This document shows, in pieces, positions 23,751 through 25,007 of a stretch of DNA of 64,000 nt. The stretch is taken from the NCBI RefSeq assembly GCF_045037415.1, contig NZ_CP173438.1. One strand, 5' to 3'. The position numbers were made by a program, and so were the translations under genes. The notes under the pieces are model-generated. The model was given only the letters and a program-made list of their open reading frames with translations, had not been told where the DNA came from and searched no databases. Origin of the DNA: Escherichia coli. Its GTDB lineage: Bacteria > Pseudomonadota > Gammaproteobacteria > Enterobacterales > Enterobacteriaceae. Position 1 is the first letter of the stretch; every line of letters starts with the position of its first letter.

Positions 23751-23814
23751 CTTTTTTTCAGGCATTTTAGACAACTTAACATTAACACATTAATAACATT
23801 CACTTTTTAAAAAC

Positions 23815-23830
23815 TGGCATCCGCTTTGCA
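23815..23830 (+). promoter_or_regulatory. sigma54 (-24/-12) promoter for rutA operon
   Basis: TGGCAT-N5-TTGCA matches TGGCAC-N5-TTGCW; the rut operon is known to be NtrC/sigma54-dependent. Confidence 0.65.
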
Positions 23831-23858
23831 AACAAGCCATTACGCGGCTGAAAAGGAT

Positions 23859-25007
23859 ATGCAGGATGCAGCGCCCCGTCTGACTTTCACTTTACGAGAC
23901 GAAGAGAGGTTGATGATGAAAATTGGCGTATTCGTACCTATTGGCAACAACGGCTGGCTCATTTCGACCCACGCGCCGCAGTACATGCCGACATTTGAAC
24001 TGAATAAAGCCATTGTGCAAAAAGCGGAGCACTACCATTTCGATTTCGCCCTGTCGATGATCAAACTGCGTGGCTTTGGCGGCAAAACTGAGTTCTGGGA
24101 TCACAACCTTGAGTCGTTCACCTTGATGGCGGGGCTGGCAGCCGTGACCTCGCGCATTCAGATATACGCGACAGCTGCCACCTTAACGTTACCTCCGGCA
24201 ATCGTCGCCCGTATGGCCGCAACCATCGACTCCATCTCTGGCGGGCGTTTTGGCGTCAACCTCGTGACTGGCTGGCAGAAGCCCGAGTATGAGCAGATGG
24301 GGATCTGGCCTGGCGATGACTATTTCTCCCGTCGTTACGACTATCTCACCGAATATGTTCAGGTGCTGCGCGACCTGTGGGGCTCGGGGAAAAGCGATTT
24401 TAAAGGCGATTTTTTCACTATGGATGATTGTCGCGTCAGTCCGCAACCGAGTGTCCCCATGAAAGTGATCTGCGCCGGGCAAAGCGACGCTGGCATGGCG
24501 TTCTCCGCCCGGTATGCCGATTTTAACTTCTGTTTCGGCAAAGGCGTAAATACACCCACGGCTTTCGCCCCGACCGCTGCGCGGATGAAACAGGCCGCAG
24601 AGCAAACCGGACGCGACGTTGGCTCTTATGTGTTGTTTATGGTGATTGCCGACGAAACCGACGATGCCGCTCGTGCAAAATGGGAACACTACAAAGCGGG
24701 CGCGGATGAAGAGGCGTTAAGCTGGCTAACCGAACAAAGTCAGAAAGATACCCGCTCAGGTACTGACACCAACGTCCGTCAGATGGCCGATCCCACTTCG
24801 GCGGTAAACATCAATATGGGGACGTTAGTCGGTTCTTACGCCAGTGTCGCGCGCATGTTAGATGAAGTCGCAAACGTGCCTGGTGCCGAAGGCGTGCTGT
24901 TGACCTTCGATGATTTTCTGTCGGGAATCGAAACCTTCGGCGAGCGCATTCAACCACTGATGCAGTGCCGCGCCCATCTCCCTGCGCTGACTCAGGAGGT
25001 GGCATGA
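23859..25007 (+). CDS. rutA: Pyrimidine monooxygenase RutA (FMN-dependent, luciferase-like); start uncertain
   Basis: ORF track starts at TTG 23826, inside the predicted sigma54 promoter; first in-frame ATG at 23859 (MQDAAPRL…, no SD); ATGs at 23913/23916 (MMKIGV…) have a better SD. Confidence 0.85.

Follow-up and report, generated by a model that had tools for sequence, protein, structure and literature searches.

Promoters of Escherichia coli that are recognised by σ54 and activated by NtrC, among them those of glnK, glnH, astC and ddpX, share a GG-N10-GC core, are occupied by σ54 in vivo and are induced, according to the literature, under nitrogen limitation. The promoter of rutA has the same core and the same occupancy, the induction is common to rut, and the dependence of rut on NtrC is likewise known from published work. 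RutA of E. coli K-12 has been crystallised; the protein encoded in the DNA analysed here is about 99% identical to it and is found in the same operon context, and only the annotated N-terminus varies between sources. In this respect rutA resembles genes with over-extended annotated N-termini that stem from longest-ORF calls: there is an in-frame upstream ATG with no stop following it, no usable Shine-Dalgarno (SD) sequence and no conservation, and profile-guided annotation has corrected the start. It differs from the usual over-extension in that the apparently false N-terminus overlaps a conserved non-coding element.

In an initial annotation of this DNA the rutA start was called ambiguous, and this is true of the databases, where annotations disagree (382 amino acids in K-12 versus 363 from PGAP), but it does not amount to an open biological question. 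We put the probability that RutA is translated from the ATG at 23916 (MKIGVF..., 363 amino acids), a reading based on sequence comparison, at roughly 0.88. Transcription would proceed from the NtrC-dependent σ54 promoter at 23815-23830 and begin about 75 nt upstream of this ATG (predicted position 23841), GAGGT at 23906-23910 would act as the SD sequence, and the interval 23859-23915, which holds the 19 extra codons of the K-12 annotation, would be a 5′ untranslated leader that resembles coding sequence only through the chance presence in E. coli of an in-frame ATG without a later stop. Gene, operon and σ54 promoter are familiar from earlier work, as is the short start, which PGAP has already adopted; the only new lead is an element in the leader, to which we return below.

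The window, by which we mean the whole 64,000-nt stretch of DNA that was analysed, is the putA-rutR-rutABCDEFG region of E. coli, with the local order putA, rutR (minus strand), rutABC and onwards. A 701-nt query from the rutR-rutA region (window 23600-24300) finds matches in 5,421 of 5,426 complete E. coli genomes. Strain SK1144 has the identical sequence, and of the 5,424 places matched, seven fall on records classed as plasmids. The PGAP annotation of SK1144 places rutR, which encodes a TetR-family repressor, at 22990-23628 on the minus strand, divergent from rutA.

The σ54 promoter (-24/-12 type) occupies positions 23815-23830 on the plus strand and consists of TGGCAT (23815-23820), CCGCT (23821-23825) and TTGCA (23826-23830), the whole element being TGGCATCCGCTTTGCA; the -24 GG (23816-23817) and the -12 GC (23828-23829) stand at the correct spacing (TGGCAC-N5-TTGCW). 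These are exactly the coordinates at which the initial annotation had located TGGCAT-N5-TTGCA as the rutA promoter. It is the sole match to TGGCAY-N5-TTGCW in the window, where 0.25 matches are expected by chance and at least one was found in 21 of 100 shuffles, so that a single match is not significant alone. The promoter is taken to be real not because the pattern is unique but because the -24/-12 match recurs upstream of rutA in 78 of 78 related loci, its columns being invariant in the leader alignment, and because the site is occupied by σ54 in K-12 ChIP-seq. The published ChIP-seq data for K-12, where the promoter sequence is identical to that of the window, assign site OS10 (CTGGCATCCGCTTTGCA) to rutA at a distance of 18, with the EcoCyc status 'predicted', and a gSELEX peak for σ54 has also been reported in K-12 at the rutA/rutR spacer.

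From the geometry of the -12 GC, transcription of rutA is predicted to start at 23841 (plus strand, within 2 nt). The rule used in the ChIP-seq paper, which counts 19 bp downstream from the motif centre to the predicted start, leads to the same position, and the distance of 18 in its table equals 23859-23841; an earlier placement of the start near 23841, about 18 nt before ATG 23859, agrees with this rule as a predicted position. With the K-12 start codon the rutA leader of 18 nt is the shortest in the rows of the ChIP-seq table that were retrieved, the others ranging from 34 to 254 with one of 3739, while a start at 23916 gives a predicted leader of 75 nt instead. A scan of 23400-24100 found no σ70 promoter, and a terminator scan of the same interval found, at chance level, a single weak hairpin of terminator type on the minus strand. 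A search of the accessible literature found no mapped rutA transcription start or N-terminus. We infer both the position of the transcription start at 23841 and the absence of any 382-residue protein.

Upstream of the promoter, two tandem NtrC-like half-palindromes, TGCACTCTCATCGCGCA and TGCATGTTTTATGTGCA, lie at 23691-23728 (plus strand), some 115-150 bp before the predicted transcription start. They have 2 and 3 mismatches to TGCACY-N5-RGTGCA and as single sites are not above chance; only their position and tandem arrangement are in favour of them, which is suggestive of an NtrC enhancer and makes them a candidate for one. Published work places a single RutR box between rutR and rutA, ahead of the rutA promoter, and a RutR-box-like sequence, TTGACCGTTTAGTCCA, is found at 23735-23750 (plus strand) with 3 mismatches to TTGACCANNTGGTCAA, which is not significant alone. 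An A/T-rich block, TTAACACATTAATAAC, at 23783-23797, some 20-35 bp before the -24 element, has several columns that do not vary in an alignment of 44 sequences from different genera; it may serve, between enhancer and promoter, as a site for DNA bending (IHF-type). The spacer is also where the window departs most visibly from K-12, with 13 substitutions at 23709-23840 (-207 to -76 from the rutA ATG), several of them as adjacent pairs and concentrated between the RutR box and the promoter; the 75-nt leader is free of substitutions, and the 1092-nt CDS has 22. The pattern suggests an old recombinant or a fast-evolving spacer.

The candidate start codons of rutA, all on the plus strand, differ in their relation to promoter and ribosome-binding site. 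TTG 23826, the mechanical ORF start (393 amino acids), is located within the -12 element, in agreement with the initial annotation, which had put it inside the promoter, and its anti-SD duplex is -1.5 kcal/mol. The ATG at 23859-23861, used by the K-12 reference (382 amino acids), is downstream of the predicted transcription start and hence present on the predicted mRNA; it overlaps the conserved leader element and we judge it not to be the start. The earlier description of this codon as having no SD is correct in so far as no usable one exists, but AAGGA does occur at 23853-23857, 1 nt away, with an anti-SD duplex of -5.4 kcal/mol and a spacing of 0-1 nt, too close for a ribosome-binding site. 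Further downstream, AGAGAGG at 23903-23909 precedes both the ATG at 23913-23915 (MMKIGV, 364 amino acids) and that at 23916, in keeping with the initial annotation, which had also anticipated a protein about 19 residues shorter than the long form (364 residues from 23913 or 363 from 23916, against 382). The two ATGs share one anti-SD duplex of -8.6 kcal/mol, with the SD core GAGGT at 23906-23910 identified from sequence and pairing energy; it stands 5 nt before ATG 23916, for which the spacing is 4-5 nt, and is too near to ATG 23913, for which the spacing is 1-2 nt.

Among the annotations inspected, only NC_000913.3 has the long form of rutA: there b1012 comprises 1149 nt and 382 amino acids from the equivalent of 23859, while PGAP gives 1092 nt and 363 amino acids from the equivalent of 23916 in each of the eight RefSeq E. 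coli genomes inspected. The TIGR03612 RutA equivalog profile scores 725.6 bits against a cutoff of 498.3, its positions 1-354 of 355 aligning with residues 20-373 of the 382-residue form. Position 1 of both TIGR03612 and PF00296 falls on the Met at 23916 (residue 20 of the long form), and the extension lies outside both profiles. As in RutA, the protein thereby begins with the first beta-strand of the luciferase-like barrel, to which profile position 1 corresponds, and the annotation of identical and related E. coli records shows a rutABCDEFG operon with divergent rutR. Structures have been deposited for each length: PDB entry 6SGG has 363 residues and 6SGL has 364, and 5WAN is the 382-residue long form with a tag, which was expressed and crystallised. 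We place the CDS of pyrimidine monooxygenase RutA, 363 codons and a stop, at 23916-25007 (plus strand), as indicated by PGAP, both profiles and 6SGG.

For comparison across genera, 80 rutA loci were taken from one-genome-per-species collections, and the 78 with a complete 5′ end, which span Enterobacteriaceae, Erwiniaceae and Yersiniaceae, were analysed. An alignment of the RutA N-terminus across genera had been proposed in the initial annotation as a check on the start; in it ATGAAR is invariant and the upstream extension is not maintained. The first codons are ATGAAA in 71 of 78 loci and ATGAAG in 7, and every one of the 78 has an SD-like, AGG-containing sequence ahead of the ATG; in 67 of them 6-7 nt separate the last AGG from the ATG. 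In the column conservation profile, third-position periodicity begins exactly at 23916 and there is none upstream. The 19 upstream codons contain an in-frame stop in 33 of 78 loci. Close relatives that carry ATGCAGGATGCAGCGCC have this motif in all three frames relative to rutA, with non-triplet indels between motif and SD; of the 58 loci that possess the motif, 19 have ATG at the position of ATG 23859, 17 have GTG, TTG or CTG and 22 have a non-start triplet, and this triplet is in frame with rutA in 22 and out of frame in 36. In the Enterobacter cloacae complex, Dryocola, Buttiauxella and Rahnella bruchi the σ54 promoter is 56-63 nt before the rutA ATG, so that the predicted leader is 30-37 nt long and the extension cannot be encoded there; for the first three of these groups alone the figures are 56-61 nt and 30-35 nt. 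Buttiauxella gaviniae has the longer spacing of 185 nt (positions 1315-1500 of its locus) and a leader of about 159 nt, which contains an inserted GC-rich segment that is absent from the other Buttiauxella loci.

Within E. coli the frame of the extension is open in about 99.7% of genomes; the chance that a frame of 18 codons stays open is about 42% in any case, and low within-species divergence also contributes to the open frame. A divergent leader allele, in which CGA has become TGA six codons upstream of 23916, is carried by 15 of the 5,426 complete E. coli genomes, and in NT1N25, the one of these 15 that was inspected, rutA to rutG are all annotated as intact. When the window is compared with this stop-allele lineage, non-synonymous or nonsense changes outnumber synonymous ones by 4 to 1 in the extension, and the 363 core codons have 7 non-synonymous versus 81 synonymous changes (Fisher p = 5e-4 for extension versus core). 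Insertion sequences have also entered this region. In E. coli KFu015 an IS1B element (positions 788-1500 of its locus) sits in the rutA leader immediately upstream of GCAGGATGC, at the equivalent of about 23860 in the window, where it parts rutA from the σ54 promoter and removes the equivalent of ATG 23859; rutA is annotated there as intact, with 363 amino acids. In E. coli SEV1 the gene itself is split by ISVsa5 (IS4-like; positions 1817-3701 of its locus), and two partial pseudogene fragments are annotated.

Profiles, PGAP, conservation, natural variants and SD geometry together bear out the suspicion raised at the outset that the long ORF start is wrong and the SD-preceded ATG right, and narrow the choice to 23916. 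Counted against 23916 are the presence of ATG 23859 on the predicted mRNA, the open frame in nearly all E. coli genomes, the fact that the 382-residue form is tolerated (5WAN) and its retention by the curated K-12 reference. The alternative that makes most of these points is dual initiation in E. coli, in which translation would start mostly at 23916 and a minor 382-residue isoform would arise from ATG 23859 wherever the frame is open, the extension being lineage-specific and probably neutral. It draws on an ATG that is preceded by AAGGA on the predicted mRNA, on a frame that is open in most E. coli and on a long protein that folds and crystallises, but the SD spacing of 0-1 nt is unfavourable, the extension lacks coding constraint, and in relatives, as in 15 E. 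coli genomes, it is broken or out of frame; we consider dual initiation improbable. Initiation at the adjacent ATG 23913 (MMKIGV..., 364 amino acids) is less likely again and has only a slim chance of being correct: the codon directly follows the same SD and a 364-residue RutA exists in the PDB (6SGL), but it lies 1-2 nt from the SD duplex, the profiles begin at the next Met, and across the 78 loci this position holds ATG in 2, GTG in 15 and some other, non-start triplet in 61. The least likely reading, that ATG 23859 begins a regulatory uORF or leader peptide (MQDAAPR...) accidentally fused in frame to rutA in E. coli, is rejected on grounds of start codon, frame and periodicity, for although many Enterobacteriaceae share MQDA[AT]PR, begun by ATG or GTG, and the +1 frame version ends at a TGA overlapping the rutA ATG, the start is replaced in the 22 loci noted above by CCG, AAG, TCG, CGG, TAG, GAG or CAG, all three frames are used, the SD spacing is poor, there is no codon periodicity, and the stop position is not conserved, giving peptides of 8 to 44 amino acids or an ORF fused to rutA.

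With translation placed at 23916, the interval upstream of it can be considered as a leader, and its first part is conserved in its own right. The conserved leader element comprises 42 nt at 23841-23882 (plus strand) and was delimited by a covariance model, a conservation profile, counts of GGA motifs and counts of base pairs. Its parts are a possible helix between ACGCGGC (23842-23848) and GCCCCGT (23873-23879), with one internal mismatch, and inside this helix a GGA at 23855-23857 and a mini-hairpin TGCA-GGA-TGCA at 23860-23870. The covariance model built from the element matches the window at 23841-23882 with 51.9 bits and finds one match per locus in 51 of 78 loci, with nothing significant outside rutA leaders in 381 kb; in loci L006 to L084 of the collection the element stands at about 1421-1473. 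In the alignment of 44 leader sequences the invariant or nearly invariant columns are CG at 23843-23844, G at 23847, GCAGGA-N-GCA at 23861-23870, GC at 23873-23874 and CG at 23877-23878, and column conservation across the element is comparable to that of the promoter hexamers. The false extension overlaps this nucleotide-conserved stretch, and for that reason the peptide MQDAAPR looks conserved in several genera, a likeness by which protein alignments could be misled. An Rfam scan of 23650-24050 on both strands, at E <= 10, returned no match.

Within the element the GGA motifs and the hairpin around one of them are the most regular features. Two GGA motifs stand 9-11 nt apart in 43 of the 44 distinct sequences, where shuffled sequences average 10.5 of 44 with a maximum of 18; five Pantoea sequences have two hairpin-type GGA motifs each. 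The G-C and C-G pairs that flank A-GGA-N are invariant in all 44 (GC-N-GGA-N-GC, which is UGCA-GGA-UGCA in E. coli). The mini-hairpin is predicted in the single-sequence fold, and RNAalifold predicts only its two invariant GC pairs. The outer helix (23842-23848 with 23873-23879) is paired at 83-84% across sequences and beats slid controls, a figure to be read in the light of the helix having been derived from the same sequences; covariation is thin, consisting of G-C to A-U changes in 7-8 related sequences and a few wobble pairs, and on this sequence evidence the outer helix is a possible one. An argument from stable structure was tried and set aside, as the whole leader and seven orthologous elements are no more stable than shuffles (z from -1.0 to +1.1).

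The element is also absent from some genomes. A deletion of about 45 nt has removed the whole of it in the E. cloacae complex, Dryocola, Buttiauxella and Rahnella bruchi (loci L021, L023, L026, L037, L041, L042, L047, L050 and L083), where it has brought the σ54 promoter to the short distance of 56-63 nt from the rutA ATG, and other Enterobacter species keep it; this natural deletion experiment means that the element is dispensable in the several lineages that deleted it. A smaller change is seen in E. coli O157:H7 TW14359, where a G to A substitution alters the GGA of the hairpin loop (CAGGATG to CAGAATG, at the equivalent of 23865 in the window). In the same strain rutC is annotated as a frameshifted pseudogene, and the two changes may reflect decay of rut in this lineage.

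As to function, the first 40 nt or so of the rutA mRNA could be an undescribed regulatory RNA leader element shared across three families of Enterobacterales, a tentative proposal to which we give less than even odds. A GC helix from about +2 would enclose two GGA motifs, one of them in the invariant GC-N-GGA-N-GC hairpin, and the element would act on the RNA as a candidate CsrA/RsmA-type site, a 5′-terminal stabiliser, or both. We also considered that the element might be a DNA operator. Two observations favour recognition as RNA over this: the GGA in the middle of the TGCA/TGCA dyad is invariant and strand-asymmetric, and the C-to-U changes preserve pairing, as G-U, on the plus strand alone.

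[quoted passage not shown] Like high-affinity CsrA sites, the rutA leader has a GGA in a hairpin loop and at least two GGA motifs within bridging distance; it matches the 12-nt CsrA consensus only at AGGAUG. It is unlike sites of classical CsrA repression, which lie over the SD sequence or start codon, in that its GGA motifs are 50-60 nt upstream of the ATG and its SD sequence, GAGGU, contains no GGA. The relation of the rutA leader to CsrA sites is on these grounds one of resemblance, not membership. In the one csrA transcriptome dataset checked rut is at background level, and a literature search for rutA together with CsrA found nothing relevant. Ribosome profiling of E. coli NCM3722 in nitrogen-limited chemostats, in which rutA-G are strongly induced, places these genes among the typical ones with a concerted rise of mRNA and relative translation efficiency (PMC9624429), and this rise is compatible with leader-mediated control.

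The placement of the start has practical consequences. The K-12 record (b1012, NP_415532.3) and the 5WAN construct include 19 residues that the cell very probably never makes, and these probably spurious residues affect residue numbering, the design of constructs and the databases against which proteomics data are searched. The published 18-nt leader of this σ54 transcript would become one of about 75 nt, and per-gene translation efficiencies, being computed over the annotated CDS, depend on which rutA start is used. For the biology of the operon, the leader element is of interest as a specific and testable candidate through which a nitrogen-scavenging system that has been well studied may be controlled post-transcriptionally; if the proposal is true, such control would be added to the transcriptional control of pyrimidine catabolism by NtrC and RutR.
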